Positions 2,639-56,293 of a stretch of 56,570 nucleotides of DNA are shown piece by piece. A program made the position numbers and the translations under genes. How positions within the stretch are numbered: position 1 is the stretch's first letter; each line of letters begins with the position of its first letter. Below the pieces are notes generated by a model. The model searched no databases and was not told where the DNA came from. It saw only the letters and a list, made by a program, of their open reading frames with translations. Source of the stretch: Schmidtea nova (taxonomy: Eukaryota). Location of the stretch: assembly GCA_044892505.1 (NCBI GenBank), contig CM097882.1, positions 255,316,001 to 255,372,570 of the forward strand. The letters are read 5' to 3'.

Positions 2639-3274
2639 TTATAATGGTTCATCCCTTCCCGTCGAGTCAGGCTCTCGAACCGGTTCTGGAAAATTGTCTA
2701 ACCAGTTATACCATGCTCTAACTTCTTCTCGCGTCTCATTCAATCTTCTAATTTCGTTTGTTTGCCACTCCGTATGTCTTGTAAACCATTCAATTCTCTG
2801 GTCCTTTTGGATTATCATTTGTTGTTGTTCTTCCATTTTGGCAAGATATAATAAATTTCTGTTTACGCTCTCTGTTAACAAAGCTTGTTCGTTTTTCCAT
2901 TGTGCGTAGGCTTGATTCAACATCCTGCTTAATAATTCACATTGCGTTTTCCATGATAACTCTTGCGTCATTGTCTGCTGATAAACCATCGGAGCTGATA
3001 TTGATTGAGTCTGGCTATTTGTTGGTTGTTGATTTAATACGAATGTCGTTTGAATTGGGTTCATGGTTTCATCAAATAGTGGAATTTCGACTTGGTATAT
3101 CAGGTTTCTATCATCAATTGTTGGATTTTGCGTTTCATTTTCGATTACTGGGGTTTGCAGTGACCCTTCTCTTTCTCGTATATTGGTATCTTCTGGAAAC
3201 TGAGTTTGATTTAATGGTTCATTGAACGTAGGAACTGATGTTTGATAACTTTGACTCTCGTTGTTCGGATTCAT
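2639..3274 (-). CDS. Hypothetical protein, Q/N/T-rich N-terminus and coiled-coil-like C-half
   Basis: Uninterrupted ~211-codon ORF (first ATG 3274), same strand and compact spacing as its neighbours; no recognisable family. Confidence 0.6.
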   Translation of the reverse strand: MNPNNESQSYQTSVPTFNEPLNQTQFPEDTNIREREGSLQTPVIENETQNPTIDDRNLIYQVEIPLFDETMNPIQTTFVLNQQPTNSQTQSISAPMVYQQTMTQELSWKTQCELLSRMLNQAYAQWKNEQALLTESVNRNLLYLAKMEEQQQMIIQKDQRIEWFTRHTEWQTNEIRRLNETREEVRAWYNWLDNFPEPVREPDSTGRDEPL

Positions 3275-3428: not shown

Positions 3429-5951
3429 TTACTCTGACAACTTGCGTTTCGACGACACTCTGATGTTCTCATCTGGCTCGTCGGTTAATATGACTTTTAT
3501 GTCTTCTTGGGTGACTTTTGAACCATTATGTGTTACTATCTGACATACGAGTGTTCTAAACATTTCTTGTGATGCTTTCTTTTTGTAAACACAGATTTTA
3601 TATTTTGTTTCTCGTTTTAATCCATTTATTCGGATTTCTCCTCCTTCTGCTCGTTGACATTTGACTGGATTATCTCCTTTAATTTGCAATTTTACGCTAC
3701 TCCAACATGCTTCTTCATTATCTGCTCCTTGTATTAATACTTGTACTGGTTTTCTCTTGTCATCCGCTTCCGTTCCTTTCAATGCTGACAGCATCAATAT
3801 CAGTAATATTATGTCTTTTATTCGAGTTTTATGTAGACATGCTGTTCGTTTTTCATAATTTGAAGTTTCTTGCTTGGGTTCATCACTTTTGTTCCCAATT
3901 TCCTCGTTATTGCTTTTTCCATCATCTTTCTCGTCTTTGTCATTGTTTCTGTTGATACTTTCATTGTCATCTTTCTTTGTTTTGTTGTTATTATTCTCTT
4001 CATCTTCATCGTCAGGCTCATTGTGATCATCAGCACCACCCTCGGTTCTGATTAAAATGTCGTCCTCGACATTTATTAATTTTATTATTTCCTCATATCT
4101 TTTGGCTATTTCATCCGCTTCGGCTTTTATATTTGCTCTCTTGGTTATTTCTTCTTTGGCGTTGTTCCAGCTTCGGTGAATTCTGCTTTCTTTTATATTT
4201 TCTTTCCATATGATGACTTGCTGATATAATTCATGTCTTTTAGATCCAATTCTTTCTTTTTCTTTTTTGTTGTTTGTAAATCTGAAATCAGGTCTTTGCA
4301 GCAATGCTTTAATCGTTTTACACATTTTCCATTTTCTTTTCATGGCTCTTTTCATTATCATATTTTCACCGTCTTCAAATCTGTCATTGACATTTATCAC
4401 TCCTTCGTGCGTAACTGGATGTAACCATTTAATCATTTTGGCTGTTGTTTCGTCTGCATCTTTGTTCACTGCATTTACTAATGGATTTGGATCTGAACTG
4501 AGTACTTCAATATCTTCTTCTGTAGCATTTGACATAATATATTTGATTATTTGATGGTTATTTGCTTGCACTGCATATGATAACACCGTTTCATTTTTAT
4601 CATCTCTTTCTTTAAAACTTGATCCGGTTCTCATCAGTTCTGCTATGAGTTTCTTGGATCCTCCTTTTTCAATTGCTACCATCAAGGGTGTTTGATCTTT
4701 CCAGTTTTTCGTGTTGGTATGTTGTTTACACTTTTCCATGAGTTTTATGATTTCAAACATTCTCTGTTCATTCCCACTTTTTATTGCGTGGTATAATGGT
4801 ATCTCATCTTTAAAACTGGTAATTGTAAGTAATATTGGTAATCTTTCTTTTATGGTATTCATCGCTTCTGTCGTTTCATTTCCTTTGGCATATTCCTCAA
4901 CCATTAAGCTTACTCCTCCCAATATTTCAAATAGATTTTTACTTTTTGACCATTCTGGCATAATTTCTTTGGTAATCTCAATGATCAATTCCATCTTTTT
5001 GCGGTGCTCCATTTTTACATCGTCAACTATCTTAGGTTGTTCAGATATTGTTGTTGACTGATTTACTTTTCTGCTCGTAGTTAATATACGATGTAGCCAA
5101 TCGTCATTTGCATTTTCTCGAAACATAAATACTTGTCCTTTTCTGGTCATTTCTTGATTTGATTGTTCTGTCATTGTTTCTCTTGTGCAATTCTCTTCAA
5201 TTTGGTGTTTCAACTTCATCGTATTCAAATCAATTACAGATCCTTTTAACAGTTTTGGTATTAAGTCTGTTCCAATAATGCATGATGCACCTAGTTGTTT
5301 TATTACTGTCAAATAAGTTGATATTTTCACATTTCTGTATTCGATGTCTGTCCATATTTTTCCAACGATATTGACAGATTCTTTGCTGCATGTTATTACG
5401 TCTACTGATGTTTTCTCGATGCATGACCATAACATTTCTGGTATCATATCGATATCTATTGCTGATATATTTGCGCCAGTGTCTATCATGGCGTCTACTT
5501 TCACACCATTAACTTCGATGTTAATTGTAAGTGTTGGTCCAGCTGGAGTTTTCATCATTGCAATTATCGTTGTTTCGGGATTATCTTCACCTCTCGCTTT
5601 TCTGGTCAACTCGCTTCCTGCAATTTTATCAACAGTTAATTTATTACTTGTTTCGATTTGTATTGGGGTTACACCGATTTCTATATCATCATCCAGCGAT
5701 TCTCCATCATATTTCAAGTGAAATGGTAAGTCAAACGGTAATCTCTCTTTTATCTCTTTGATCTTTGTTGTTAATGATACATTCATCTTTATTTCTTCTA
5801 GACTCGGAAACTGAATTTTCAATCTGCACATCTGTGGATCATCGTTTGTTTGTTCCAGTTGTTTCCATTTTCTCATGATGTCGTCAAATTGTGTTGAATA
5901 CCAAGGGCATAAACGTCTGCATTTCTCGATTTCTCTCACTATCAATCTCAT
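3429..5951 (-). CDS. Mosaic 840-aa protein: ubiquitin-like + retropepsin aspartic protease + ankyrin repeats + acidic linker + signal-peptide-like segment + FN3-like domain
   Basis: LKIQFPSLEEIKMNVSLTTKIKEIKERL..LKYDGESLDDD (UBL-like); IEVNGVKVDAMIDTGANISAI..CIIGTDLI (retropepsin); IPLYHAIKSG, DQTPLMVAIEKG, NETVLSYAVQAN (ankyrin); KDIILLILMLSALKGTEA; INGLKRETKYKICV (FN3-like). The frame is open upstream to 6047. Confidence 0.75.
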   Translation of the reverse strand: MRLIVREIEKCRRLCPWYSTQFDDIMRKWKQLEQTNDDPQMCRLKIQFPSLEEIKMNVSLTTKIKEIKERLPFDLPFHLKYDGESLDDDIEIGVTPIQIETSNKLTVDKIAGSELTRKARGEDNPETTIIAMMKTPAGPTLTINIEVNGVKVDAMIDTGANISAIDIDMIPEMLWSCIEKTSVDVITCSKESVNIVGKIWTDIEYRNVKISTYLTVIKQLGASCIIGTDLIPKLLKGSVIDLNTMKLKHQIEENCTRETMTEQSNQEMTRKGQVFMFRENANDDWLHRILTTSRKVNQSTTISEQPKIVDDVKMEHRKKMELIIEITKEIMPEWSKSKNLFEILGGVSLMVEEYAKGNETTEAMNTIKERLPILLTITSFKDEIPLYHAIKSGNEQRMFEIIKLMEKCKQHTNTKNWKDQTPLMVAIEKGGSKKLIAELMRTGSSFKERDDKNETVLSYAVQANNHQIIKYIMSNATEEDIEVLSSDPNPLVNAVNKDADETTAKMIKWLHPVTHEGVINVNDRFEDGENMIMKRAMKRKWKMCKTIKALLQRPDFRFTNNKKEKERIGSKRHELYQQVIIWKENIKESRIHRSWNNAKEEITKRANIKAEADEIAKRYEEIIKLINVEDDILIRTEGGADDHNEPDDEDEENNNNKTKKDDNESINRNNDKDEKDDGKSNNEEIGNKSDEPKQETSNYEKRTACLHKTRIKDIILLILMLSALKGTEADDKRKPVQVLIQGADNEEACWSSVKLQIKGDNPVKCQRAEGGEIRINGLKRETKYKICVYKKKASQEMFRTLVCQIVTHNGSKVTQEDIKVILTDEPDENIRVSSKRKLSE

Positions 5952-6050
5952 GTTTGATATATTTGCACTATTTTTTATAACCCATTTTAGTAATTCAGTT
6001 GTTGTTTCACATTGATTTCCTGCATTCTTGATTAGGTTATTGATTAATCA

Positions 6051-6529
6051 TTCGGTCTTTGACGTCTCTGTTTGTTTTGATCTTTCGAGCTTCGCTGATT
6101 TCCTTTTTTCTTCCGACTTTTGATTCATTTTCGTCATTTCTTCTATGGTAATGGTTAACAATCTTTGTGCCATTTGATCGTTATGGATTCATCCCATTTC
6201 TCGTCCATGCTACATGTATCATCATTGCTTCTTCTTTCTCTTCTTTGTCGGTTATATTTCTCCACAAACTTCTTCTTTTCTTCTCCCTCCATATCTTTTA
6301 CTGAAAATTCATATACATTTCCCTTTCTTTCAATTTCAACGTCTGATAATTCGGTTATCATTTCATTTACTTTTCCTTCGATATTCTGTTGTAGTTGCAT
6401 ATTCATTGTTATTACTTCTTTTTCTTCTTCCTGTAAATTATCTTCTACATTTGGACTGGTTATTTTCTGCTCTTCTTTTAATAAATTATCTTCTGAGTTT
6501 GCACTGGTAACTTTCTGATTCTCCTCCAT
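6051..6529 (-). pseudogene. E/K/N-rich low-complexity coding remnant, probably a disrupted N-terminal extension of the 5951..3429 ORF
   Basis: ORF 6529..6155 overlaps a second open stretch (6188..6051) that is in frame with the mosaic ORF and separated from it by one TGA (6050-6048). Confidence 0.4.
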
Positions 6530-6985: not shown

Positions 6986-7211
6986 ACAATACTAATACTA
7001 TAATAACAGTATGATCATACTCATCTCGGCATTCAAAAAAAATGTCTTGTTCGTTATCTATTCATGGCCATTATTTTATTTCCTAAGTACTACACCTTAA
7101 GTATTCGCGTTCAATGTTTTTCTCTGTCATAACAAAATTTTTTCTGCGCAGTTTTATTTAATTCTATCTCTCAAACGTTTTCCTAAATTTCTCAACAATA
7201 TCCACAAACAT

Positions 7212-7614
7212 TGGACTCTCAAAGTCTCTCACATACATGAACTCTCAAAGTTTATCAATTATCTGGACTCTCAAAGTCTCTCCCAGAGCGCTCAATTATC
7301 TGGACTCTCAAAGTCTCTTAATGGACTCTCAAAGTCTCTCAATGGACTCTCAAAGTCTCTCAATGGACTCTCAAAGTCTCTCAATGGACTCTCAAAGTCT
7401 CTCAATGGACTCTCAAAGTCTCTCAATGGACTCTCAAAGTCTCTCAATGGACTCTCAAAGTCTCTCAATGGACTCTCAAAGTCTCTCAATGGACTCTCAA
7501 AGTCTCTCAATGGACTCTCAAAGTCTCTCAATGGACTCTCAAAGTCTCTCAATGGACTCTCAAAGTCTCTTACTGGACTCTCAAAGTCTCTTACTGAACT
7601 CTCAAAGTTTCTCA
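7212..7614. repeat. 21-bp minisatellite (ATGGACTCTCAAAGTCTCTCA)
   Basis: 11 perfect units at 7321-7551, variant units at 7300, 7552, 7573 and 7594, and degenerate copies back to ~7212. Confidence 0.97.
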
Positions 7615-8652
7615 ATTATCTCGGCCGTCTTCAATTGTTCTCTTTATGCTATTTAATCACTCGTTTCCCTATTCTCAAATTTTTAAATAAATTCGCTGTT
7701 GCTGACTGTTTTTCTCAAATTGTTCTACTACTTCTCAATTACGAATTTATTCCTTAACTACCATGGTAGAATCTTTTCTTGTTATATTATCATCTACTAT
7801 TATCATCGAAATTCACTTTTTACTCTTTTGACTTGCTAAAATCTGCATCTGATTTTCTCAGCAACTTTCTCTTTACTCATGTTACTGTCTTCTACCTCAG
7901 TGTACCAATCATGCCTTGGCAAACTGGTGTATAAGATGAACATTACGGGTTTGACCCTTTCACCTAATTCAAAATCGTAAAATAATCGCATCAACTAGTT
8001 TCGCCATTTGTGATGATCAGTCACAAACGAAATTTCGCCAACATATGCGATGGATATCCTATTCTACTCTCTTTCCTCAAGGTGATCAAGTTTTTCCCCG
8101 TTTGTTGTCTGCTAATTTTTAACAACAAAATATTGACGTACTATCTTTTGATAGCTCTGTTAAAACTTGGCGTACTATCTTTTGATAGCTCAGTTATGAA
8201 TTTGTGAACTATTTTCTCGTTTCGACTCAGGCACTCATTTATTTCGGAAGATTCTCCCTATAAAATCAACTTCTATAACTCTACTTATTGCTCGTCCTAA
8301 TACATACATATTTATATAAAAATGATCAGTATAATAATGATAATCAATATAATAATGATAATAAGGAAGATTTATAGTAATAGAATTCGGATCGATATAA
8401 TAATGATGAGGAGGATTTATAAGAATAATAATAAAGAAAATTTGAAAAGAACAGAAAAATAACTTTGTCACAAATTCCCATTTTCCTAATGTTTAATTTT
8501 TCGGCATTAGCCGTTACTTGTTATGTTTTACGCGCATCTCAGTTATTAATTACCTAGTGTTCTTTGTTTAGTTAGTTTTCACGACGGTTTGGAGTACTGG
8601 ATGATCGACGAAGTTCAACACGACTAAAACGTTTTATTTCGAACGGCATTCT

Positions 8653-9135
8653 TTACGAACAAAATACGACGATTTTGTCTTCAATCGTCTGTTTGCAGAT
8701 TACGCATCTCTTTATTTCTCCATAACACGGCTGGCAATAACACAAATGCACACATGGCATGAAAAAAATGTTCGCTTCTCTTAGTCGACAAATATAACAT
8801 CTTTCGAACGAATCGATCTGTTGATTCATCGATCTCTCCAGCCTGTCCATGATTTTATCGATTTTACCAATCCATTCCTGTATTTTCAGATCGAAATTCG
8901 GATTATTCAGTCGCAATCGTTGTAATTCATAAACCGTTTCTAACGAAATATCGTTTGTTGCTCCCACAATTCCTGCAATCACTACCAGATTCTCAGGTTG
9001 TGGTCCAGGACTCAACAATAATTCATCTTTTATTCCATTTACTCGTTCGAGTTTCTCGCTCAACACCTGTAATGGGTCATTTTTAAAATCGAAAAACAAC
9101 TCGATTCGTAGTAAAATATGCTCAATCGATTCCAT
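8653..9135 (-). CDS. Small protein with C-terminal RING-HC finger of the IAP/MDM2 type (putative E3 ubiquitin ligase)
   Basis: CYICRLREANIFFMPCVHLCYCQPCYGEIKRCVICKQTIEDKIVVFCS at the extreme C-terminus; ATG start, intronless. Confidence 0.85.
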   Translation of the reverse strand: MESIEHILLRIELFFDFKNDPLQVLSEKLERVNGIKDELLLSPGPQPENLVVIAGIVGATNDISLETVYELQRLRLNNPNFDLKIQEWIGKIDKIMDRLERSMNQQIDSFERCYICRLREANIFFMPCVHLCYCQPCYGEIKRCVICKQTIEDKIVVFCS

Positions 9136-11443: not shown

Positions 11444-11605
11444 ATCAAACATAATTTTCCGCTGTTTGTGTCAAAGTTTTATTTAACAGTTTGTTGATAT
11501 TTTATGAAAACTTTCATTAAATCTCGCGCGAACTCGTTTAGTTGTTTTTCGATTTTTTCAAGCAAAACAAACTCAAATCCCGGCTGAGCCCCCAAATTTT
11601 TATAT

Positions 11606-11841
11606 GGTGGGTTGTTGATCGTCAATATGACCTTGACGTTTCTATGGCTCTCATCAACAACTCAACACATAAAACATTTAAACTACCATCTTGTTACCCG
11701 TCACTATGTAACGTTGGTACTGTAACAAGTGGGTGGGTATTCGCAATCAGTGAGCGTCGTCAATACGAAACTATGATTGACCGAATATCTCCTGGGTCCA
11801 AGGGCTACCGATAGAAGGTTTAATGCCCATTTTGTCCCTCC
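11606..11841 (-). repeat. Conserved block A, copy 1 (inverted relative to 25881-26116 and 26426-26648)
   Basis: Reverse complement matches GGAGGGACAAAATGGGCAT...GATCAACAACCCACC with few substitutions. Confidence 0.95.
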
Positions 11842-12899
11842 TTTAATGATTGATCTATAAGCATTCAACAAAATTTTATCGGAAATTCAACATAAACACT
11901 CTACACAACTATAAATTCATTATTGCATCCAACTAAATTATTTCGAGCATCAAAAACACTAATATAACCCTATTTTTACCAATATTGCATTTTATGATAA
12001 TTAATACATAAAATATTATATTTTTATAGAAAAATTTTAATCTGCATTTGAAATTTAAGAAAAATTTTAATTATTACCGTAATTTAATCCAGTTAAGAAA
12101 TAATAAAAATAAAATTTCCGTTTGTTTAAAATTGCTAATTTAATCAAAAGGACAAATTTACTCAATTTAAAAATCATATTAATTTTAAATGTAATTTTCT
12201 GAATTTTTCAATAAATTGATAAATTAACAATTTCTATAGTTCAGATCAACAAGAAATGGACCTCTCCAGAAACTACGAAACCAGAGGAAAATTCTCCCAC
12301 CCCAAACGGGTCAATCCAATTAGAACTCGAGCTCCTATGAAGCAAAATAGCCCGCTCTACCAACCAAGTAAAATTTTGATTATTTCAGAATTATAATTTA
12401 TTTTGAACAATTTTAGAAAATTTCTTGAAGAGAATATGTTGGAACTGGCCCTTCAAGCATTGTAAACCGGAAAAAATCCTTGCCGGGGACTCTTATCCCT
12501 CAAACTGAATTTTTATCAATAAATCTTTAGATAAAAATTTTTTTCGTCTTTACTCTTTTTCGTTTGAGTTTTTATTATTTTTATGAAATTTTTGTAAATT
12601 AAAAATAAACTGTAATGTAAATGGCCTATTTGGCTGGGTAAATTCAATTTTATATGGTAGGTTTGAATGATAGAAATTTTTGTATGGTTTTTCTGGATGT
12701 ATGTTGCCGACTAACATAACTGTGTAGAATTTTCAGTATGGTTTGCTTGTGTGTATATAACTATTGAATGCTAATAAATGGTACTGTGTATGTGTGTATA
12801 TTGTATTTTAAATATATGTTGCTTGTGTATTAGTATGGGAAATGTTATTGAATGAAATGGATGTAATATTTTGCAAATAGGGATGCATTATGATTTTTG

Positions 12900-13030
12900 N
12901 NNNNNNNNNNNNNNNNNNNNNNNNNNNNNNNNNNNNNNNNNNNNNNNNNNNNNNNNNNNNNNNNNNNNNNNNNNNNNNNNNNNNNNNNNNNNNNNNNNNN
13001 NNNNNNNNNNNNNNNNNNNNNNNNNNNNNN
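12900..13030. other. Assembly gap (N run)
   Basis: Ns. Confidence 1.
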
Positions 13031-13907
13031 NAATTTTTATGAAGTAATATAATAATAAAATTTCCAATTTTTATATTATAAATTTTTATAATACTTTTTA
13101 TAAATTTTAAATTTATAATTTTATGAAAATAATATAATAATAAAATTTCTAGTTTTTATAATATATATTTTTATATTCGAATTTTTATATTTTAAGTATA
13201 TATATATATATATATAGTAAAAAATTTTTCCTATAAAATTTTAAATTTTGGATTTTTTAAAATGATAAAATTTTCAATATAATAATAACATTTTCGATTT
13301 AAAATTTTTATGGGTTTCAATATAAGTTTTGATTTATAAATTCTTAGGAATTTTATAAAATGACAAAATCTTTTATATCATAACAATATTCGGAGAATTT
13401 TTGGTTTACAATTTTTCATTATAAAAATTTTTTCAATATAATAAAAAGTAAATTTTTATTTTTTGATCGAAACGAAATCCACATCATAATAAATTTCTCA
13501 TCCATAGATTTCGAAATCTAAATAAGCATTTAATCTAAAAATTTTTATATGCTAAATAAAAATAAAATAAAAAATAAGTTATAAATTTTTCAACGAAATT
13601 TTTTCGACATCGAGTAAAGTTAATTTCGGTTTCCTTGTTATTCCATCGGATTTGAGCATTAATTCGAACGATTTACTTTTTGATATCGGTTTTTAATATT
13701 CTGGCTCTTGGATGAGAAGAAAATTATTGTGAAGGTGAAGGCGAAGGACGAGTAAAATGTTTTTGCATAATTATTTTTCCTAATGGAAAAGATGTTGCTG
13801 GAGAGATTGGTTTTCACGTTTTCATGTAGTATTAATTTTCAATATATTAAAAATTATAAATTCGGATAAGCTACATTTATTATAAATAAATATCATTAAT
13901 ATAACAC

Positions 13908-14085
13908 CTTGCCTTGGGCCAAGCCACTGTTCCCCAGTTGGGATGAAGTGATCTTGGATGGTTAGGCTATTCACCTGAACTCGGACAATGGACTGATCGA
14001 TTTACGTATCGAACCAGCGATCCGCTCAGGCTACTTCCACCCGATCGGCGCAAGGCCAGACACAGGCTTCAGGGGGTAAGGAAGT
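13908..14085 (-). repeat. GC-rich conserved block B, copy 1
   Basis: Inverted copy at 17838-18015; much higher GC than the flanks and by eye better conserved than them. Confidence 0.95.
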
Positions 14086-16404
14086 AAAAAAAAAATTAAT
14101 ATTTTTTATTTATTTATTCTCTTTATAATATATATTATTGTGACTTTAAACGGCAATTTGCGACAAACAAAAATTAAAAAATTAAAAGTAAATATTTTAA
14201 TATTCAATAACGATAGCATAATAATAATAATATAAAAATTATAAAAACATTATCGGTACGGGGAAATCGAACAGGCATGGTGTTCGATGACCCCGCGCCA
14301 ACAAAAGAATAAGACTTACGAATAAATTTAGAGGTCTTCTTGCATAAAATTTTAAAAAATTTTTTTTTCACAAATTCTGAATAGATTCCATTTTGATGGC
14401 GGTATATATACCGTCGATTTTCGTCACCTTCACCAGTGTAATAAAACAAATTGTTCTAGAATTTTCCATTTAATTTTTTCTAAATTAATTCTAATGATTT
14501 TCCGAAAATTAAATCCATATTTTTGTGTAATAATTTTTTACAAAACACAAATAATTTATTTTAATCCAAAATTTTTATTTTTGAATCGAAATTTGTTCGA
14601 TTTAATTTAATTTACGATATTTCAATCAATATTAATTCTTTTTATTGTTAATGTGAAATATTTTGCTAACATCACAATTTTCGGCTAAAATTCTGTTAAT
14701 TTTTTCTGCATGAAGGTTTTATAACACAATTCCGTTGTTTATGGGTATTTTCAATGGGTTTTCCGCCTTATTCTAACTTTTAAACGTTCTTCTTTTGATG
14801 GTATTTGATTTTTCTCGAGGTTTCAATGTAAGAGCTCTCAGACTCACAGCTAGCGCGTTCTCTACTGGTTGATGTGTTGTGAGTTCACTTCACCTTTTGT
14901 TGTTTTTCACTTAATTGCTTGGATTTTTAATGGGTTTTTGGGTTAAAACTGAATCTTGCGCGCTCTCTACCTATGAGGTTATCGTTTGTTTAAAACAATT
15001 TGTGGTTTTTGCCCAACATTTCCTAGAATTAGACAAATTATTTTATATATACATAACCATCATTTTATAATTTAACCCTTCCAAAAATAATCCTTATAAA
15101 CCTTCCTTGCAAAATACTACATCCATTCCATTCAATAACATCATCCATATCTAATAACACATAAAAAAACTTATTTATCTATAATACACACACTACATCA
15201 TTTAATTCAATAACACCTATCTGCATCATACATCCAGAAATTCTCATAAGCACTCAATATAACCCATTTATCACTAAATTATTTATTTCATCCAGCATAC
15301 AATCACATGCAACCATCACAATAGGAGAATTTATCTCAAATGGACAATAGTTTATACGCACGCATTTGTAGCCACCACATTCCACTTCACCAAAACGTAT
15401 CACATACCTCATCCATACATTTTCATCATAAATCAGAATCCTTTACTTCACAATTTCCACAGATCAATGTAACCAACAGTTCATATTCGCTTTTCACATT
15501 ATACCATAAACATTTAATGATATCACACGAATAATCTACATTGACTAATTTATCAAATCTTTAGTATTCAAACAGAACTAACGAAATGCTTCGCGCCTAT
15601 TTATTAGCCATTTTAAATAGAAATTTTTTTTATTTTTAATCACATCTACGTAACTGTATAAGATACATGAAATTTTGAAAAATTTGAGAAAATTGTAAAA
15701 TTTTATTAACTACAAAATTTTTGAATCACCACTACTACATGTAATATCTCTTGCATCGACATAACGATTCAAAATGAAAAATTAAATATCCATCAAAGAG
15801 AACCAAGCAACATGTAGATCCATTAATTCCTTGGAGCTGGGCGTGAATTCAAATAGATTGATCCGTCGTTATAAGATGACTTGGCTGTATAAAATCGACG
15901 CGTAAAATATGACATAATCATATTACGAACTTACATTAAATTGTTTTGAGGGAAATAATTGACGAACTCGAGGATATCCGTGAAAGAAAATTGAACTGTC
16001 TCGGTTGATTCTGAGAATACGAAGCCTAAAGTTCAACAAGGTGGATTGAAATTATAAATAAGGAAAAGTAAATAATACTAAATTCAATTACTCGAATGAG
16101 AAGAAGCGATTGGGAATGTTTGAATTTTCTGCCTAAAAACTAACACCTAAAATCAATAAAATATAATATAGGAAACAATATTACTATACTGGGATTCGAC
16201 CAATTAGATTTCATTAATTTTGGTTTCCGTCTGGCAATATAGAGTTTTGAAAAAGTTAAATGCAAATTATCTTGGAAAAAAACGAAAAAGGCGTGTAAGA
16301 ATTAAATTCCTAATGTAATATTTCACTTAGAATTTTAAAATAAAATAACATTTTAATTTTAGGTAGAAATTTAAAGGTAAAATTAATATAATATTGGTAG
16401 AACC

Positions 16405-16672: not shown

Positions 16673-17837
16673 TTATGTTTGAGTATGAGCTTGAGAATAA
16701 ACTAAAATTTGTGAATATGTTTGTGTCTGTTGATAATATAATGTATAGTGATTGTGTTGGGCAAAAACTACAAATTGTTTTAATAAAGCGATAACCCCAT
16801 AGGTAGAGAGTGCGCAAGATTCCATTTTAACCCAAGCAACCATTAAAAATCCAAACGATTAAGTGGAAAACACCAAAAGGTGAAGTGGACTCAAAACACA
16901 TCAAGCAGTAGAGAACGCGCTAGATGTGAGTCTGAAAGCCCTTACACTGAAACCTCGAGAAAAATCAAATGCCATCAAAAGAAGAACGTTTGAAAATTAG
17001 AATAGGCGGAAAACCCATTGAAAATACTCATAAAAAACGAAATTGTGTTATAAAACCTTCAGTGCAGTAAAAATTAAAAAAATTTTTTAGCCGAAAATTG
17101 TGATTTTATCAAAATATTTCACATTAACAATAAAAAGAACTAATATTGATAGAAATATCGTAAATTAAATCAAATCGAACAAATTTCGATTCAAAAATAA
17201 AAATTTTAAATTAAAATAAATTATTTGTGTTTTATAAAAAATTATTACACAAAAATATGGATTTAATTTTCGGAAAATCATTAGAATTAAATTAGAAAAA
17301 TTAAAAAGAAAATTCTGGAACAATTTGTTTTACTACACTAGTGAAGGTAACGCAAAATCTATGGTATATATACGGCCATCAAAATGGCAATAATCAGAAT
17401 TGGTGGAAGTTTTTGTCGTAATTCAAAATTTTGCAGAATTTAAATTTTTAATTTGTGAAAAATTTGTAACCAGAGAAGTATTACTTGATCCTGAAATATT
17501 ATCCCGCATCGTGGAACATTAATGTAAGGAGTTATTTTTATTTATTTTTTTGGATGAGATCATCAGTCGTCATGCCCGTTGATCATCTCATGCCCAGTAT
17601 TTTGGTTATCTTTATATTTATTTATTTATTTATTTATTATTGATTTAGTTTATTTATATGAAATATCAATTTTTTAGATTGAATTAATTATTCCATTGAA
17701 TTATTACTTATTGAAATTTATACGAAAATGTTAATTTTATATGTTTTTATCAAGATACTGTCACAAATACCCATATTAGATTAATATTTATTTTAAAATA
17801 TAGGCTGTAGAAAGAGAAGAATAACTAATTTTTTTTT

Positions 17838-18015
17838 GCTTCCATACCCCCTGAAACCTGTTTCTGGCCTTGTGCCGAGCGGGTGGAAGTAGCCTGAGCG
17901 GATCGCTGGTTCGATTCGTAATCGATCAGCCCATATTTCCGAGTCCAGGTGAATAGCCCAAACATCCATGATCACTTCATCCCAACTGGGGAACAGTGGC
18001 TTGGCCAAGAGCAAG
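17838..18015 (+). repeat. GC-rich conserved block B, copy 2
   Basis: Reverse complement of 13908-14085. Confidence 0.95.
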
Positions 18016-18377
18016 TTGTTATACTAATGATATTTGATTTATAATAATGTAGTTTATCTGAATTTATAATTCTAACATATTCATAATTAAAGATTGATAC
18101 CACATATAAACGTAAGGACGATTTTCTCCAGTAATGCCTTTTCCATTATGAAAAATAATTTGTGCAAGAATATTTTACTCGTCGTTCGCCTTCACTCTCA
18201 CAACAACTGTCATCTTATCCGAAAACGCAAGTAAAATGGAAGCTAATATTGAAAAGAGAATCGTTTGAAATAATGCTCAAAGCTGGTATAATGATCACGA
18301 AATGAAACGAATTGTGAAGACAAGTATTGATTGATCTGAATTAAACCTCATTTATAGTCTAAATAATTTTCTCCAGT

Positions 18378-18541
18378 GAACCTTGTTTTCGGGAGCCTGA
18401 AGTTCCTAAGTAAAGCGTCTCGAAAAATTCACGCGCGCTTTAGTTGGGAAATTCATGCTCGAACGAAACCGAAGTTCATTTTACTCGATGTCGAAAAATA
18501 TTCATTGAAGAATTTATGACTTATTTTATTTTTATTCTTAT
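18378..18541 (+). repeat. 164-bp perfect direct repeat of 24890-25053
   Basis: No differences found by eye from GAACCTTGTTTTCGGGAGCC to TTTATTCTTAT. Confidence 0.95.
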
Positions 18542-18673
18542 TCAGTATATAAAAAAATTTTTAGATTGAATTCTTATTTGGATTGCGAAATTTGTGGATA
18601 AAAATTTATTATTTCGTTTTGATCAAAAAATAAAAACTTACTTTTATTATATTGCAAAAATTTTTATAATGAA

Positions 18674-18980
18674 CTAGTAAATCAAAAAAAAATTCTTTTT
18701 TCAAATCCATGCTTTATGCGAGCAGAACTCCACTTGGCTGAGAAATTTTTTTTTGTTATATTTTGTAAAGGGAAAATTACATTTTTCGTGTGTCCTCAAA
18801 AAAAATTTTTAAAAAAAATTTGTTTTCAAATTTTTTTCCATTTCCATGTATTGTCACCGGAAGTGAGCAAGTGTGCAAAATTTGAAGTGAATCGGTTGAG
18901 AGAAAAGCACTAAAAAATTGATTTGTAATTTTGTGGCACACACATATATATATAGAAAGCAACCTTATATAAAGCATGGA
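18674..18980 (-). mobile_element. Non-autonomous Helitron/Helentron-like element
   Basis: Minus strand starts TC and ends CTAG; 12-bp inverted repeat TCCATGCTTTAT (18706-18717) / ATAAAGCATGGA (18969-18980); (CA)/(TA) microsatellite; no TSD. The empty T-rich site is seen in the paralogous arm near 13405-13420. Confidence 0.65.
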
Positions 18981-19474
18981 AAAATTGTAAACCAAAAAAT
19001 TTTCCTAAGAATTTATAAATCAAAACTTATATTGAAACCCATAAAAATTGTAAATCGAGAATATTATTAATATATTGAAAATTTTTATCATCTTGTAAAA
19101 TTCCAAATTCGAGATTTTATAGGAAAATTTTGCGATTAATATATATATATATATATATATTAAAATATTAAAATTTGAATTCAAAATGTATATTATACAA
19201 ATTTAGAAATTTTATTATTTTCATAAAATTATAAATTTAAAAATTTATAAAAATCATAATAAAAATATTATTATTATTTTAATTCTGAAAATATTTTATA
19301 TATAAATATATATTTCTTTATAAAATACCCCCCACGATATCTCAAAATCATAATGCATCCCTATTTGCTAAAACTTACATCCATTTCATTCATTAGTAAC
19401 GTTCACATATAACACCACATAAAAATCCATTCATTCATCAACACACATACTATATCGTTTCACTCAATAGTACC

Positions 19475-22400
19475 CAGCGGCGGAACTACTGGACGCAGGA
19501 CCCTGCGTTGCGGGGGGGCCTACCAGCTATAGGGGGCCCTCATATAAAAAAAATTATACCATCAATAATATTTATACTATAAAACTCTTTTCCGCAGGTC
19601 TAGTGGGCCCTAAAATATAAAACTTGGTTAAAAAAAATGTCATCCATCGTATTAAAATATATTGTTCAAAAATTTATTTTTGTATTGGAGTGCGTAGTTT
19701 ACATTTAAACGAAAAGTTTTAACCTTTTTAAAATTGCATACGCAATTGAGAAATAAAGTACGATTATCAGCTGCGAACTGCCAGATTTTATTGTATAGTT
19801 AATTTTTATACCGTTATGTTGTGTTTGTGTATGAATTAGACAATTAGACTGAATTCGGTAAAAGTAATAATTTGTTGCGTATAAATTTTTTTTAAACTGT
19901 AAGAAGTTCTTCAATTTATAAGTTCTTAGTTGCATATTCAATATTTTTAAAATATAAACAATATTATTTGTTATGTCGTTGCATATACAAATTAACTTTT
20001 AAATGTATGTTCTCATTTTCAATTTTATATTAAATCTTCCGTTGTATTAAGTTAACTTTTCATTTCTTATTTTATCTGAATTACTAGTGTCCAATTTATT
20101 TAATCGTGTTACGAATAATAAAGTATTGTTGCACGAGAGTTTATTACTTCACTGATATATTTAATAAAAGGTAATTAATAAATTTGTAATAATTAAAAAT
20201 TTTACAACAGGTACTGAATTTATAAATTTGTAATAATTTAGATTTTGACTCATAATAATGGAAAAGAAATTAAGTAGTACAAGCGGTGCAGCAAAAAGAA
20301 GAAAGTTAAAAGAAACAAAAGCTACTTTAGCTAAATTGCCGAAGCTAACAACGTTTTTGAAACCAATCGAAAAGCGAGCGGAAACGGAAGTGGAAAGTCA
20401 GAACTCTGCAGAAGTGGTATGTATAAATCAGTCAGTAGAACATGATGATATCGAAGAAAACATTGCTACTGGTAATAAAAATGTGAACGAAGAAGATGTG
20501 AATAGGTCTCCGAGAAACCACCGAAATGAAGACAAGGAAGATTCAAACTCTGATACGAATGACGCCATTGAACAAATTAATTTAGAAAAATCAAGTGAAT
20601 TATTTTCTACTGACATTGCAAATTTTCATGGTAAAATACTAACAAAAGATATTAAGAAAATAATTGTATTATCTGAATCGTGTCGGCCAAAAGGTCCTTT
20701 TATACGCAGCCCCTTGCAAGAAAACCGTAGGTTTTCCAAGGAATATTTTAAAACTACCACAAAATATGGATCTATTTTTTTTTTTTTTTTCTATTTGCTA
20801 TTCCCCAAAACTTGATGCCGTTTATTGCGAGCCTTGTTGGCTTTTCTCAGAAGAACGAAAAGCAAAGGATAACTGGCGTGAGCATGGTGTCAGAGATTGG
20901 CGTGGTCTTTCTAAAATAATTATAATTCACGAAAATAGTCAACAACATATATTTGCTTGTTGCATTTATGAAAAATGGCGACATAATGAAACAATTGATA
21001 AAAATATAGAAGAACAAATACGATACGAATCAAAATTTTGGGTGCAAGTCTTAGAGCGGATAGTAAATATAACATTAGCACTTTGTAAAAATTCTTTGGC
21101 TTTTCGTGGTCATCGTGAATCATTTGACAATGAATATAATGGTAATTTTTTAACCCAAGTTCAACTTTTAGCTAAATATGATAATTTTATGAAGCAAGTT
21201 TTGAGTATGCCAAATGGATCTATAAAATATTTAAGCCATCAAATTCAAAATGAAGTCATACATTGCCTTGCAACACATTTAAAAGCCACTCTTACTGCTG
21301 ATATTAATAGTTCACCTTTTTATTCAATTATAATGGATACAACACAAGATATTACTAAAAGAGATCAGCTCAGTCAAGTATTTAGATACGTAAAAATTAT
21401 TAAAAATGAAAAAGATGAAGCCACATCAATTGAAATTAAAGAAGTTTTCTTGGGATTCACGGAAATATATAACCACACTGCTGCTGGACTACATGAAGAA
21501 ATTTTAAATCTGTTAGAAAAACATCATATAAAATTAAGTAACTGCAGGGGTCAAGGTTATGATGGTGCGAACGTCATGAGTGGGATATACAATGGGGTTC
21601 AGGCCCTTTTTAAGAAAAATCAACCCAATGCTATGTATATGCATTGCGCAGCTCATAATTTAAATCTTGTTATTAACGATGCGGTTAAATGTTGTGTTGA
21701 AGTTGCTTCATTTTTTGTAATGCTAGAAGATGTGTATTCATTTTTCGGAAATAGCATAAACAGGTGGGATCTACTATCCAAATTTACAGGAGAATCACAA
21801 ATAACATTAAAAAGGTTAAATCCAACGCGATGGGCAGGACGATATACTTCTCTTTTCGCCGTTAAAATTCGCTTTCTTGATATAATGAAAGCTCTTTCCG
21901 AGATATCAATAACAAGTACAAAACGTGAAGAACGCGAAGAAGCAGTACGAATACAAAAAAATATGAGCAGTTTCGAATTTGTTTTTTTATGCGTGCTTTT
22001 GTCTAAAATCCTTAATGAGGTACATATACCATCAAAATTGCTGCAAACTAAAAATTTAGATCTTATGACAGCTTCAGGTTCTCTAGAAAATGCCAGCAAA
22101 AATTTAAAACAATATAGAAAGATGTTTGATTCAGCAAACTTGAAGCGGTAGAAATAGCGACTACGTGGCAGATTCCTGCAATATTTGTTCAAAAAAGAAG
22201 AAAAATTGTGAAAAGGCATTTTGACGAATTATCTACAGATCACCGTTTTGATAGTAGTGAGGAAATTTTTCGCATCAATATTTTTATAAAAATTTTGGAC
22301 GTCGTTATCAACCAACTCGACAATAGATTTAAAGGAATGCAAGAAGTGGTACAATTATTTTCCTGCATCCATCCAAATAAATTAATGGTAATGAAAGAAC

Positions 22401-22993
22401 GTGAGATCATAAGCTGTGCAGAAGCCATTCAGAGAAAATATAGTGAAGATATAACAACTGAATTTCCGCTGCAAATGGTTATGGTAAAGTCAATGCTTCA
22501 CGATGAAATATCAAAAATATCATCTATACGTGAATTGGCTGACCTTTTAATAGTAAAATTGTCAACTATAGCTGCAAGCGTTCCACAAGTGATAACAGCA
22601 TTGTTATTGTTTGTTACATTACCTGTTACTGTTGCATCAGCTGAACGTTCTTTTTCGAAACTTAAAATAATAAAAAATTATTTACGAAATACCATTGGTA
22701 AAGAATGTTTAAGCGACCTTGCAATACTTTCTATTGGGGCAAAAGCGGCTGGAAAAATGGAAATGAAAAACATCATTACCGATTTTGCCAATATGAAATC
22801 AAGGAGGAAAGATTTCACTATTTAAGTTCGGTTAAGTTTTAGTTTCGTTTTTAAGTTATGTTTATCTTTATTTAATTTTTTGTTTTTAAATATGATATAT
22901 GAAATAAATATCTATTTAATATGTGAAGCTTTATTTTTTTAAAAAAAAACATTCTTTTGCGGGGGGGGCCCAAATTTTGAAGTTCCGCCACTG
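19475..22993 (+). mobile_element. Full-length hAT DNA transposon (ZMYM1-like transposase type)
   Basis: TIRs CAGCGGCGGAACT (19475-19487) and AGTTCCGCCACTG (22981-22993), 12/13 match; perfect 8-bp TSD ATAGTACC (19467-19474, 22994-23001). Confidence 0.97.
20258..22825 (+). pseudogene. hAT transposase split by two frameshifts (poly-T run ~20776-20791 and ~22140-22150)
   Basis: IIMDTTQD, GQGYDGANVMSG, HCAAHNLNL, PTRWA and the dimerisation motif TLPVTVASAERSFSKLKIIK are spread over ORFs 20258, 20664 and 22208. Confidence 0.93.
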
Positions 22994-29467: not shown

Positions 29468-31029
<1,562 letters not shown>

Positions 31030-38141: not shown

Positions 38142-39727
<1,586 letters not shown>

Positions 39728-47630: not shown

Positions 47631-48073
47631 CTTCACAACTTAAAATCAATTATAAAAACTCAAAAATGAAAACAATATTCGCCAAACAAATAAAATCAAA
47701 AATCAAATCCTTTCTACAAAAAACAATACAAAAAATGTTCTAATAAAGCAAAAACCTAATTAACAATAGTTAAGTTAAAAATTTACAAATTTACGAAATT
47801 CATAAGATTTTATTTTACCCAAATCTTATTTTTATGATTGACCAACAACTATACAATTATAATGAAATGTTCTATCTGTACTTTTGTTTTCCTATGTGTT
47901 ATAATGCACGCACAAGAAATTTTAATATTCAAATTATATTTATTATAAAATGATTAGATATTAAAACAGTGATGTTCAATAATTAACCTTGTTTAAATAT
48001 TATCAAGTTGGCACTGTTTTAAAAATATATATTTAATTTGTTAAATTGTTATGAATTATGAAGAGATTGTAAC

Positions 48074-48084
48074 TGGCGACCACG
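48074..48084 (+). promoter_or_regulatory. Primer-binding site TGGCGACCACG (tRNA-Arg-like)
   Basis: Abuts the 5' LTR; complementary to the 3' end of tRNA-Arg(TCG) types ending CGTGGTCG-CCA (from memory). Confidence 0.75.
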
Positions 48085-48134
48085 CCGAAAAAATCGAGCC
48101 GATTCACGCGGTGACAAGAAATCAGCATAGAAAG

Positions 48135-49266
48135 ATGATTATGGAATCTTTGCCTAAACAGGCAAAAGACATTTTGAATTTTAATGTCAGAAGATTCGAC
48201 GGCCGAAGCACGGTAGAAGCAGAGAAATGGCTCAAGGATATTGAAGATTGGATGCTACTAAATGATCTAAATTTAGTAAGTATTTTTGATTTATTATTGT
48301 CTGAAGAGGCATCTATTCTCTGGAAAGAATTTAAGGACATCGCCATAACGAATGAAAAAGCTCGTGAATGGTTTAATGAAACATTTACCAAAAAGAAGTC
48401 TATTATGGATAAGATTTGTGACTTATCAGCAGTGAAACAAAATAAAGATGAAAGATTTATTACATTCGAGATACGAGTAAAGAAACTTGTTGACGAAGTT
48501 TTTGACTGTGGAATTTCAAAAGAAAATATTGTTGAAATGATTTTGTGCAGCAGAGTTCGAAACGACCGTTTGAAAGAAAATATTTCAACGAAGGCTAATA
48601 TCACGAGGGAAGAAATTAGAAATTTAGCAAAAGTATATGAGGCACAAGAAGGCTACGATGCAAAAGAACGATTTGAAGAAGTTCAGGCAGTAGTGAAATC
48701 AACCTATGCAAACGTTGCTCAAGATAAACAGAAGCAATGGACTAAAAAAACATCTTTAAATAATAGAATGTATTCGAGTCGTCAACCAGAAATAAGTTAT
48801 CAAAATAGAAATGAAAGAAACGAAAGACAAATTGATAGAGTGAAACCCGTGGTAGAACAATATAATGAGAGGACAACTATGGATCGTAGACCACCACCGT
48901 TAGTTTCAATGAAACATATCGCAAGAAAAGTTTATAATAGATGTTGTGGTCTACCTGAGCCAGCAGAAGAAAGGTTAAGATCTGGTCAATGCTATTGTTG
49001 TGGACAGTGACCATATGCGATTTGAGTGTCCTTTGAAGGACAAATGCTTAATATGCGGTAAAGAAGGTCATTCATTTAGAAATTGCAATTTGTTAGTGAA
49101 ATCAAGAAGCAATACACAAAGACTGGAACGAAGAGTGTACTGTATACACGAAGAAGACGATGACAGATCAGAGGAATTGATAGCCCCAGTCATACATAAT
49201 GTTGAGACTCAAAAAAACCAAGAAGACCCTGTTGTCTACATTTCGTCAGTAGGGTCGAGACAGTAG
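48135..49266 (+). pseudogene. Gag of the inner element with two CCHC knuckles; frameshift at ~49005 breaks the first knuckle
   Basis: CYCCG / SDHMRFEC lie in different frames, then CLICGKEGHSFRNC. Likely start is ATG 48135, after the PBS. Confidence 0.85.
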
Positions 49267-52200
49267 ATGAGTATAAAAAACGAAATGTTGTAAAGAAGGA
49301 TGTGATGTTTAAGAAGGATGATGACAGAAAGTGGAGTACGATTGAAATAAATGAATTTTATGTAGAAATGCTATGGGATTCAGGAGCTTCAATCAGTGTG
49401 ATGAGTGAGAAATGTTGGAGATTAATTGGCAGTCCAAAATTGATGGAAAGCAGAATACGGTTGAGTGGAGTATTTTCAAAAGAAGATGAGAAACCTCTTG
49501 GAAGCGTTAAAATCGTTGCAAAATGGAACAACAAATGTCGAGAATTGGATGTTATTATTGTCAGAAAAATTCATCCAAATTTTATAGGAGGTGTAGACAC
49601 CATGAGAATATTTGGCTTGGAGCTTAAAGAAGTCAATAATATAGATGCATCGTTAATTACCCAGAAATTTACAGATTCTGATCGTTTAGAGTTTGCTTTA
49701 TCGACGCTCAAGTTGGACAAGAATTCGAAGTTGGGTACTTTAATATCTAGGTTTAGCAACATTTTTATGGCATCCAGATTTGACTTAGGTCATACAAAAG
49801 TAATAACACATGAAATAACGACTTCGGGTCCTCCAATTTTACAAAATCCAAAAAGACAACCCATGCATTTAGAAGTCAAAATTGAAGAGTTAATACAGAA
49901 TTTATTAGAAGCTGGAGTTGTGAGAAAATGTCAGAGTCCATGGAACACACCACTAGTAATAGTTGGAAAACCGGATGGCTCTATAAGAATGTGTCTAGAT
50001 TTTAGGCTATTAAATTCAGTTACAGAAAAGTTTTCATTCCCGATGCCAGACATGCAGTTATTATTGGATTGTCTCGGTAAATCAAAGATATTTTCATCAA
50101 TTGATTTAGGTCAAGCTTATTATCAGGTAGAGTTGCATGAAAATTCCCAAACCAAGACGGCATTTAGTACAAAAGAGGGACAATTCTGTTTTAACAGGTT
50201 ACCATTTGGTTTATCAACAGCTCCGGCCACTTTTCAGAAACTGATGCATAAGATATTGGAAGGATTAATTTTCAAAGGAGTGGTTGTCTATCTTGATGAC
50301 ATTTTAATATATGCTGAAAATCAGGAAACTCATGATAAACTTCTACTTGAAGTATTCACACGCATTAGAGATGCCGGCTTGAAAGTTAATCCCGAGAAAT
50401 GCGCGTTCCATAAAAGCGTATTAAATTTCATTGGTCATACAGTGAGTGAAAAGGGAATTCAAACAAACAAAAGAAAGATTTCAGAAATTGAAAATGCAAC
50501 TGAACCGAAGAGTGTTACAGAATTGAGGTCATTCTTAGGTTTAACTAATTATTATCGGCGGTTTATCAAAAATTATTCAATGATAGCAGCACCTTTGTAT
50601 GCCGCAACAACAGGAAACGATAAAATTATTGTTTGGACTGAAGAATGTAGAAAAAGTTTTATCAATTTAAAGAAACTCTTGTGTGAAGCACCAATATTAG
50701 AATTTCCAAGGGCAGATCGACTATTTATTCTTGATACGGATGCTAGTTTTGGAGCCATAGGTGCAGTTTTATCTCAGATTAAGGAAGATGGTACTGAGGG
50801 AGTAATAGCGTATGGTTCAAGACATTTGACAACACATGAAATGGGATATTGTGTTACTAGAAAAGAGTTGTTGGCACTTCACGAGTTTATTGTACATTTC
50901 AAGCAATATTTATATGGAAGAAAATTTATAGCCAGAACGGATCACAAGGCATTGACGTTTATGAACACGACAAAGAAACCAATAAGTCCGCAGTTTCAGA
51001 CATGGATGGCAAATTTATCTGAATACGATTTTGAGTTACGATATAGGAAGGGAGAAGAACATGGAAATGCAGATGGTATGTCTCGTTTAAATAATGCCAT
51101 ATGCGCTCATTGTCAGATGAAACACAAAGATGCTAAAGAGGCAAAATGTAGAACTCGGTACATTAATAGTCTACAAGGAAGTTCAAATATTATGAAAATT
51201 ATTAAACAGAAGCAAAACGAAGACAAAATTATTTCAGAAATCATATCACATCTTAATGGAAATGAGGCTCATATATCTTATGAAACAATCAGTAGCAGTA
51301 TATTCAAGTATCTAAAAATATTACAGATACAAGATGACGTATTGATGACTAATGCAGATGGAAAACTTGCAGTTGTAGTACCTGACAAGTACGTAAAAAC
51401 ATTGGTAAATTATTTTCATATTGAACTGTGCCATCTGGGTATCAAGAAAACTTTATTTTATTTAAAAGACTTTTTCTTTTGGCCATCGATGAATCAAAGT
51501 ATTACGGAATGTATTAATAAATGCAAGATTTGTGCTAGTAGAAAGATTGATCAAGGAAGAACAAAGGAAATTTTATTGCCAAGAACAGGAGAACGGTTTT
51601 TAGAACAGATAGTAGTGGATATTGCATATATGGAGCCAAAAGCAAGTAAGAAATATATGATAGTGATAATAGATCGTTTTAGTAAATTGGTCAGCTTATC
51701 AGCAACAAGTACGCAGGATGAATCAACAATTTTGAATGTCATTTTAAATAATTGGATATATCGTTTTGGTAGACCAGAAAGCATTCTTACAGATAGAGGA
51801 AGAATTTTTGAAGGATCGATGTTTCGTGATTGGATGGAGAAATTTGGTATAAAACAAGAATTCAGTTCACCATATCAACATCAATCAAATGGTTTAGCAG
51901 AACGAATCATAAGAACAGTTCGGGACATGTTGGCAACAGAGATTAGAACAGAAAATAATTGGTGCAGATTGTTACCGAAGATTGAATTTAGTTTGAATGC
52001 TACAATACAAAACTCAACAAATTTCTCACCTTTTGAAATTGTATATGGTCGGAAGATTAATTTATATTCTAGATTAGGACATATACAAAAAAGCAAAGAA
52101 GAAATCGTGGATAAAACAAAAACTAATCTAGAGAAAGCAGCTACAATAATGCAAAATAGAGATTTAGAACACCGGGGAACTCGAGTTTTCACGGTGGGAG

Positions 52201-55500: not shown

Positions 55501-56293
55501 TTCCGTGTATCGACTTTGTCAAAGATCTGCAGGCTTTCGCAAAATGATTCATTCTGTCGCAATTCGTACACTTCTTTCCATATGCCGGGCATTTCTTTGG
55601 CTCGTGTATTCGATCACAGTAATGACACCTTTGATTTCCTTTCTCTTCGAATTTCCTTGATGTTCCAAGGTTTGATCTCTTCTTTTTAGTGAAATTGATT
55701 TCATCGGTCGTAGAGGTAATTGCAGGTTTTGTTCCATGCTGGAGGGATATGAACGTCGATATCTCCTCATATGTTTGCATTTGTGCGAGGATCTCGTTGC
55801 ATGTTGGAATCCCAACACTCATTTGCATCAAAATCTTTTCCTTAGCATTGATGTCATATATTCCCGATATCAATGCCATGAGGAGCATATCCTCGTTGGG
55901 GTCAGTTGAGTCCTTCAATTTCTTGAAGTCACAATATATAGCAGCTTTCTTGAGTCTGATATAGAAATCTGCTAATTTCTCTTTCGGTTCCTGTCTTAGC
56001 TGATAAAATCTTGCTCTCTCAGCTATTACAACTTTGCTTTTCGGCTGTGTGTGGTTTAATAGCATGGCTTTGATCTCGCTGAACGTCATCTCCTCTAGCA
56101 ATTTGGGAGAAGCCATATGTTGGATTTTCGTGAGTGCCTTCAGTCCACATACAGATAGGAAGTTGTCCATGATTTGTCTTGATTTGTCACTGTCGACCCA
56201 CTTATTGGCTCGACTCATCGCACCAAAAGCGGTTAACCATATTTCGACATTGATGTTGTCATCTAGATTCAATTCTTCCAATCGTGACGCCAT
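52560..56293 (-). pseudogene. Gag-Pol of the outer element, two +1 frameshifts in RT (~54838, ~54615) and RNase H Asp to Asn
   Basis: MASRL start at 56293; CHYCDRIH..C and CTNCDRMNHFAKAC; DTGASVSI; KLDLTSAYWQI; YQDD; LTTNAS (expected TDAS); HMDW, VSDNA, SNGSAER. Confidence 0.93.
56282..56292 (-). promoter_or_regulatory. Primer-binding site TGGCGTCACGA (tRNA-Ser-like), overlapping the Gag start codon
   Basis: 1 nt after the LTR end CA; complementary to tRNA-Ser(CGA) types ending TCGTGACG-CCA (from memory). Confidence 0.75.

Follow-up and report, generated by a model that had tools for sequence, protein, structure and literature searches.

A protease-ankyrin reading frame of Schmidtea nova: probably the main protein of a non-autonomous Burro-type retroelement, in a broken copy

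A stretch of 56,570 nucleotides of Schmidtea nova (GCA_044892505.1, contig CM097882.1, positions 255,316,001 to 255,372,570 of the forward strand; hereafter the window) contains an 872-codon stop-to-stop frame at 3429-6047 on the minus strand, whose first ATG at 5951 opens an open reading frame (ORF) of 840 amino acids. A sequence-only reading had described it as a ubiquitin-like (UBL) domain, a retropepsin, ankyrin repeats, an acidic linker, an internal signal peptide and an FN3-like domain in an unfamiliar order. According to our analysis this ORF is probably a broken copy of the 1,036-amino-acid main protein of a non-autonomous long terminal repeat (LTR) retroelement of the Burro type (hereafter the satellite), likely copied by a Burro1-like autonomous relative (the helper). 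In sibling copies the gene is a single ORF of 1,036 amino acids that starts at the equivalent of window position 6529, and the window ORF is the 3' portion of this gene, not the whole gene. In the window copy the frame is shifted by an indel near 6175 and interrupted by a stop just above 6047, and this copy probably makes no full product. The indel was also found in two of the 49 other loci fetched; thus it is inherited and not an assembly error.

The gene lies in an LTR element of about 23.5 kb with an interior of 16.6 kb. The LTR pair of the window copy is 99.4-99.7% identical; the 3' member of the pair is situated ahead of the window, with a sister copy nested in it that divides it in two. 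Four sibling copies have LTR pairs that are 99.76-99.98% identical and are flanked by 4-bp target-site duplications. Satellite LTRs measure 3.4-4.5 kb and whole copies 21-26 kb. When five satellite interiors were searched with ten helper domains (tblastn), Gag, zinc knuckle, Env, reverse transcriptase (RT), RNase H and integrase were absent from all five; the sole match was MATH, which stems from the TRAF cargo gene, in four interiors, and the fifth had none. Because near-identical LTR pairs occur here without replication genes, mobilisation in trans is proposed: an autonomous Burro1-like helper would mobilise the satellite via the LTR, primer site and leader that the two have in common.

The sampled helper is about 29.7 kb long, has LTRs of 4,107 bp and encodes a polyprotein of 4,893 amino acids in the order Gag, CCHC, MATH, UBL, in-frame fusion glycoprotein, protease, RT, RNase H, integrase, ankyrin, signal peptide, four FN3-like repeats and membrane anchor. 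Pfam recognises Gag, CCHC, MATH, the fusion glycoprotein, RVP, RT, RNase H, integrase, Ank and, weakly, fn3; it gave no BCL2-like or dUTPase-like domain in the helper, and a dUTPase search of the genome returned one non-repeated locus. LTR, primer site and 3' junction of the satellite are common to this helper. With one copy of each compared, the LTRs are 92-96% identical, the leader 88-89% and the last 300 bp about 96%. The coding parts are much further apart: the best pieces are 68-76% identical with a synonymous divergence (dS) of 1.5-2.1, whereas the RING ORF of the leader is 96% identical between a sibling and a helper copy (dS 0.08). This indicates that the coding parts split long ago and that the cis-acting parts were exchanged recently.

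A second autonomous family (30 kb, 5,487 amino acids) has the same primer site and cargo order, with pieces that are 25-47% identical. Both autonomous polyproteins end in an internal signal peptide, several FN3-like repeats with four cysteines and a membrane anchor; the 5,487-residue polyprotein contains two such modules of signal peptide, repeats and anchor, and two ankyrin blocks. Three env-bearing gypsy families (3,034-3,401 amino acids, LTRs of 0.86-1.1 kb) were rejected as helpers, their LTRs being unrelated and their proteases about 24% identical or without a match. As a separate observation, at least three high-copy gypsy families besides those of the Burro type encode an in-frame mononegavirus-like fusion glycoprotein, one of them together with a Bcl-2 domain.

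The unusual domain order is explained by comparison with the helper. The satellite protein is colinear with the helper polyprotein: residues 32-144, 151-314, 311-447 and 436-986 align with helper residues 441-552, about 1320-1482, 2629-2765 and 3774-4342, respectively (E 1e-22 to 8e-123; 42-68% amino acid identity), and the 5,487-residue polyprotein gives the same order of pieces. The helper parts missing from the satellite are Gag, the MATH region, the region at the BCL2 position with Env, the block of RT, RNase H and integrase, and everything past the first FN3 repeat, namely the remaining repeats and the anchor. UBL and protease stand about 1,150 residues apart in the helper, and the alignments identify the UBL-protease and protease-ankyrin orders as old deletion junctions. 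By the same comparison, the succession of ankyrin, acidic linker, signal peptide and FN3 is inherited intact from a membrane-anchored FN3 array. One older satellite copy retains remnants of Gag and zinc knuckle ahead of the polyprotein, which shows that loss was stepwise and in frame. The architecture is thus a trimmed Burro polyprotein aligning in order with four helper pieces, and not the independent invention for which it could be taken.

In Ddi1 and Ddi2 (UBL-HDD-retropepsin), too, a helical and a UBL region directly precede a retropepsin, a resemblance that the sequence-only reading had pointed out. The best PDB sequence matches of the satellite protease are indeed Ddi1 proteins (E=0.036), and one could imagine that the gene is a Ddi1-like one of the host, or that host genes for UBL, protease, IkB and FN3 were captured and fused de novo. 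We regard this as hardly credible. The gene is flanked by LTRs, is present in well over a thousand copies and matches the helper in the order of its pieces, and the protease, with 1,740 copies, is 68% identical to that of a retroelement; membership in the Ddi1 family was therefore rejected. The order that looked like kinship with Ddi1 comes from deletion in a retroelement polyprotein and, unlike in Ddi1, is multicopy, mobile and followed by ankyrins. The comparison with retroelement protease regions, made in the same reading, was borne out.

Had sibling copies shown RT directly after the protease, the window copy could have been a one-off recombinant. A 200-residue query covering UBL and protease gave 150 scored matches of 96-100% identity out of 7,417 candidates, and in the 30 top-scoring sibling loci the protease always runs into ankyrin and never into RT; nor did RT follow the protease in any satellite copy examined. 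The window copy is therefore no such recombinant. Two longer sibling frames (2,134 and 1,248 amino acids) turned out to be simple-repeat read-throughs without RT. In one sibling the polyprotein is fused in frame to the C-terminal half of the IAP (about 1,171-1,180 amino acids), again with no RT inside. Protein collections returned generic ankyrin matches only for the window polyprotein, and none of 1,051 candidates was a longer fused relative of residues 1-330, which is weak evidence.

Searching the genome with a degenerate protease motif gave 2,610 matches, and the first 30 loci were classified as satellite (21), helper family (3), the second, more distant autonomous family (4) and Pol-less forms of the latter (2). 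These Pol-less forms of a different Burro-type family, in which the protease is joined to ankyrin without RT, represent an independent loss of Pol. Family-specific protease words occur 1,740 times for the satellite vs 245 times for the helper (about 7:1), and exact 3' junctions number 2,257.

The polyprotein gene of the window copy has the following parts (all on the minus strand):

3429-5951, polyprotein remnant ORF, 840 amino acids (ORF listing, Pfam)
6155-6529, 5' gene fragment of 124 amino acids, severed by the indel near 6175 and homologous to the helper region just after Gag (comparison with siblings and helper)
5598-5951, helical segment and UBL/SUMO-like domain (UBL about 5598-5831), terminal di-glycine absent; 53% identity with the segment that directly follows MATH in the helper (Pfam PF11976, E=0.017)
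5199-5567, retropepsin, DTGA at 5472-5483, with a cleavage-like word ahead at 5550-5567 (Pfam; identity to the helper protease as given above)
5118-5135, cleavage-like word on the way from protease to ankyrin; its homologue in the helper is the integrase/ankyrin border (alignment, per-copy listing)
4053-5006, ankyrin region with recognisable repeats mid-region and helical flanks; 50% identical to the helper (Pfam)
3852-4052, acidic, Asn-rich linker, present in both autonomous families (sequence)
3759-3833, internal signal-peptide-like stretch; each of the two autonomous families has a homologue of it in the matching position (hydropathy)
3516-3746, single FN3-like domain with four cysteines; the later repeats and membrane anchor of the ancestor are absent (alignment, predicted fold)

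Profile searches confirmed two of the domains named from sequence: retropepsin (Pfam RVP, E=1.1e-5, 26.1 bits, cut-off 20.7) and ankyrin (Ank_2, E=1.3e-11, 45.3 bits, cut-off 27.3). The acidic linker and the hydrophobic stretch ending in TEA are present in the sequence. The UBL domain is weakly suggested by a match to Rad60-SLD (SUMO-like, PF11976) of 15.4 bits, which lies under the cut-off of 23.8, and by a redesigned ubiquitin as top PDB profile match (E=0.12). The C-terminal domain of the window ORF has no Pfam FN3 match, and here it is the predicted fold that speaks for the call. An AlphaFold model of window 3465-3779, built from a 12-row alignment with 11 homologous repeats, has six strands and a pLDDT of 67.7; Foldseek returned FN3 domains in every row listed (best E 3.7e-3, none below 1e-3) and VIA in most rows (best Z 7.5, none of 8 or more), and FN3 clusters at 0.85 in Atlas serve as a lead only. 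The L-x-P/x-x-T-x-Y motif and the beta-sandwich are moderately clear, and a helper repeat matches Pfam fn3 (E=0.0011). We therefore call this domain FN3-like with moderate confidence on the basis of the model. A single-sequence fold of the 840-residue ORF (pLDDT 35.7) was not used.

How the protein may be processed can be read from its borders. A short word recurs at the domain borders of both autonomous polyproteins, and where it precedes the satellite protease its core showed no change in any of 20 copies. The protease would thus likely cut the protein into a UBL-bearing N-terminal piece, the protease itself and an ankyrin-acidic piece, and self-cleavage, proposed from the sequence alone, is plausible given that cleavage-like words flank the protease. 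Signal peptidase would likely release the FN3-like tail into the endoplasmic reticulum. Both autonomous families have a counterpart of the hydrophobic stretch in the equivalent position, and a similar hydrophobic stretch precedes Env, so that the predicted export of the FN3-like part appears likely. The region that leads from the ankyrins to the signal sequence showed no cleavage word; hence the ankyrin-acidic product would probably stay tethered to the endoplasmic reticulum by the signal sequence.

An ankyrin block followed by an acidic tail recalls IkB, and the ankyrin piece might accordingly be a mimic that blocks a host NF-kB-like protein. TRAF and IAP, which the satellite carries as cargo, act in that pathway too. 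RHD-ANK proteins occur in planarians, and something comparable is seen in a planarian nidovirus (PMC6211748). However, no IkB, Bcl-3 or p105 chain was among the 60 matches listed (of 330 and of 142) in a ranking that favours long repeat proteins, and the piece has no visible cleavage word that would free it from the signal sequence. We thus consider such a mimic doubtful, and the description of the ankyrin part as IkB-like was not upheld.

Around the polyprotein, the element is organised as follows (minus strand, except for the tandem repeat):

11605-15018, 5' LTR of 3,414 bp, TG...CA, with a 4-bp target-site duplication and a masked N stretch inside (LTR comparison)
11577-11594, primer-binding site with complementarity to tRNA-Pro, lying 10 nt in from the end of the LTR; it matches tRNA-Pro(TGG) genes of the genome and is the same in the helper and the second autonomous family
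8653-9135, RING (C3HC4_3) ORF of 160 amino acids in the leader common to the helper (Pfam, E=2.2e-11)
7210-7620, leader tandem repeat, limits approximate, no strand assigned, present in the helper too (sequence, blastn)
2639-3274, cargo ORF of 211 amino acids with no assigned function and a homologue in the second autonomous family (ORF listing)
1141-2598, intronless TRAF of 485 amino acids with RING, zinc fingers and MATH (Pfam TRAF-MATH, E=8.9e-23)
1-920, BIR-RING IAP gene, frameshifted near 708 here and extending before the window (sibling ORF of 389 amino acids: BIR, E=2.9e-16)

The full gene order is RING ORF, tandem repeat, polyprotein, 211-residue ORF, TRAF, BIR-RING IAP, two coiled-coil-like ORFs and two ORFs with hydrophobic ends. 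TRAF and IAP are absent in 9 of 20 satellite copies, mostly via one recurring deletion inside the 211-residue ORF. Ten autonomous regions, among them five helper copies of which two were only partly covered, were tested for BIR, and it was absent from all ten (no genome-wide BIR census was made). A very abundant Polinton/Maverick has a Cys-rich ORF of secreted type whose N-terminal domain recurs in a 274-residue cargo ORF of the satellite (57% identity over 37 residues), which suggests that a DNA transposon and an LTR element have exchanged genes. The Polinton, found via this cargo-gene homologue, was rejected as a parent of the satellite.

Proteins of non-autonomous retroelements act in trans and are normally expected to decay. 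We compared 20 satellite copies, 18 taken in genome order (leaving aside one old copy and two local duplicates) and two picked for variant codons; the neutral expectation for omega, from four-fold sites, is 0.66. Variants shared by at least two copies comprised 154 nonsynonymous and 134 synonymous changes (omega 0.27), private ones 242 and 108 (Fisher p=5.8e-5). The ankyrin part, with 15 and 41 shared changes (omega 0.08, p=1.1e-4), appears to be kept by purifying selection. Omega of shared variants was 0.21 for the N-terminus, 0.32 for UBL, 0.33 for the protease and 0.32 for the signal peptide, and in the 11 copies having both genes 0.19 for TRAF and 0.22 for IAP. With a value of 0.52, the FN3 remnant looks nearly neutral, weakly constrained and mostly vestigial. 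Ankyrin, TRAF and IAP may act on survival or immune signalling of the host, which would give a reason for the selection.

Could the satellite nevertheless be a plain defective derivative, spread by its cis sequences alone, whose selection signal goes back to an unsampled closer autonomous family, by descent or by renewed recombination with it, and whose protein is now inert? The leader shows recombination with the helper, and only 30 protease loci were classified. Although 11 of the 20 copies are uninterrupted from the 6529-equivalent start to the end, the ORF is broken or cut in the other nine, and sub-lineages with N-terminal breaks or without TRAF and IAP have multiplied. However, across the part of the protease that could be aligned, none of the seven RT-bearing loci among those 30 is more than 63% identical to the satellite in amino acids, and three large deletions and the later loss of Gag left one open frame. 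Moreover, omega is 0.27 between an older and a young satellite copy and about 0.21 in the sub-lineage of the window copy. We therefore regard an inert derivative as rather improbable.

A possible interpretation, which we put forward tentatively and with low confidence, is a division of labour in which the helper provides particles and enzymes, and the long-lived satellite, more numerous by about 7:1 and devoid of replication genes, is kept as the carrier of a self-processed ankyrin protein, TRAF and IAP, cargo that is partly absent from the sampled helper copies. In such a division the cargo would be favoured for keeping the retrotransposing stem or germ cell alive.

Several observations weigh against our reading of the satellite, its processing and its selection. 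A protease tree lacks a starred clade joining satellite and helper. The satellite FN3 is as similar to other repeats as to the first repeat of the helper, so the helper that was sampled is not its direct parent. One position of the second cleavage word is variable (C, Y or G; F in the window). In the putative signal peptide, the hydrophobic core contains a lysine in 3 of 20 position-ordered copies and in 7 of the 30 best-scoring loci. Within the polyprotein only N-terminus and ankyrin are significant in the selection test (protease p=1, UBL p=0.15, FN3 p=0.62), and this test draws on related, recombining copies conditioned on an intact protease motif. Finally, the copies without TRAF and IAP (9 of 20) have spread all the same.

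Burro1/GYPSM1, a giant Ty3/gypsy element of planarians, encodes a polyprotein of 4,873 amino acids with a Gag containing CCHC, MATH followed by a SUMO-like domain, an in-frame Env before the protease, RT, RNase H and integrase, and ankyrins, and its named cargo is BIR, RING and TRAF, as far as the part of PMC6431247 available to us describes it. The helper fits this account in length (4,893 vs 4,873) and domain order, the comparison being by description only. The satellite has the long TG...CA LTRs, primer site, 4-bp duplication, size above 20 kb, cargo and polyprotein homology of a Burro-type element (the SUMO-like domain under the cut-off). It keeps the SUMO-like, protease and ankyrin parts as well as BIR, RING and TRAF cargo; unlike Burro1 it has no Gag, Env, RT, RNase H or integrase, so that it cannot count as an autonomous Burro, and it carries BIR, which the helper copies examined lack. 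The same part of PMC6431247 describes no non-autonomous family, no internal signal peptide after the ankyrins and no FN3 array with membrane anchor. A Burro1 BIR-RING IAP has been placed in a host-transposon mutualism (Lee et al. 2026, as related in the accessible part of PMC13465017). In both cases a BIR-RING IAP sits on a Burro-type element, there on Burro1 itself and here on a replication-dead satellite. This satellite was not found described in the literature searched, though Grohme 2018 and Lee et al. 2026 may describe it.

Among non-autonomous LTR elements, the plant TR-GAG, BARE-2 and LARD keep Gag, with or without protease, or nothing. The satellite resembles them in its intact LTRs, primer site, likely helper dependence and high copy number. 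It differs in having lost Gag and kept the protease and host-modulating cargo in about 21-26 kb.

The surroundings of the element in the window also contain repeats and genes. The sister copy nested in its 3' LTR is younger, 26 kb long and in opposite strand orientation. Diverged fragments of the satellite's LTR family lie on the plus strand at about 16750-19400. Two actin ORFs with identical translation stand in inverted orientation (29703-30701 and 38495-39493). Judged by eye, 20258-22825, 48051-52394 and 52560-56293 hold a hAT-like transposase, which is broken, and a pair of ordinary gypsy elements that lie on opposite strands. Elsewhere in the genome, the tRNA-Pro(TGG) genes form a long tandem array with a 308-bp period (1,106 motif matches genome-wide).

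In S. nova, a replication-dead family thus outnumbers its likely helper, exchanges cis sequences with it and seems to retain its protease-ankyrin protein by purifying selection; by arithmetic, about 1,700 copies of 21-26 kb amount to roughly 3% of the genome. The module of signal peptide, FN3 array and membrane anchor is an addition to the Burro polyproteins as described in the part of PMC6431247 at hand. The satellite also carries an IAP of the kind that, in the second-hand account in the part of PMC13465017 at hand, protects planarian stem cells. With this, the reason why parasites of parasites keep cargo becomes testable in an animal that lends itself to knock-down.

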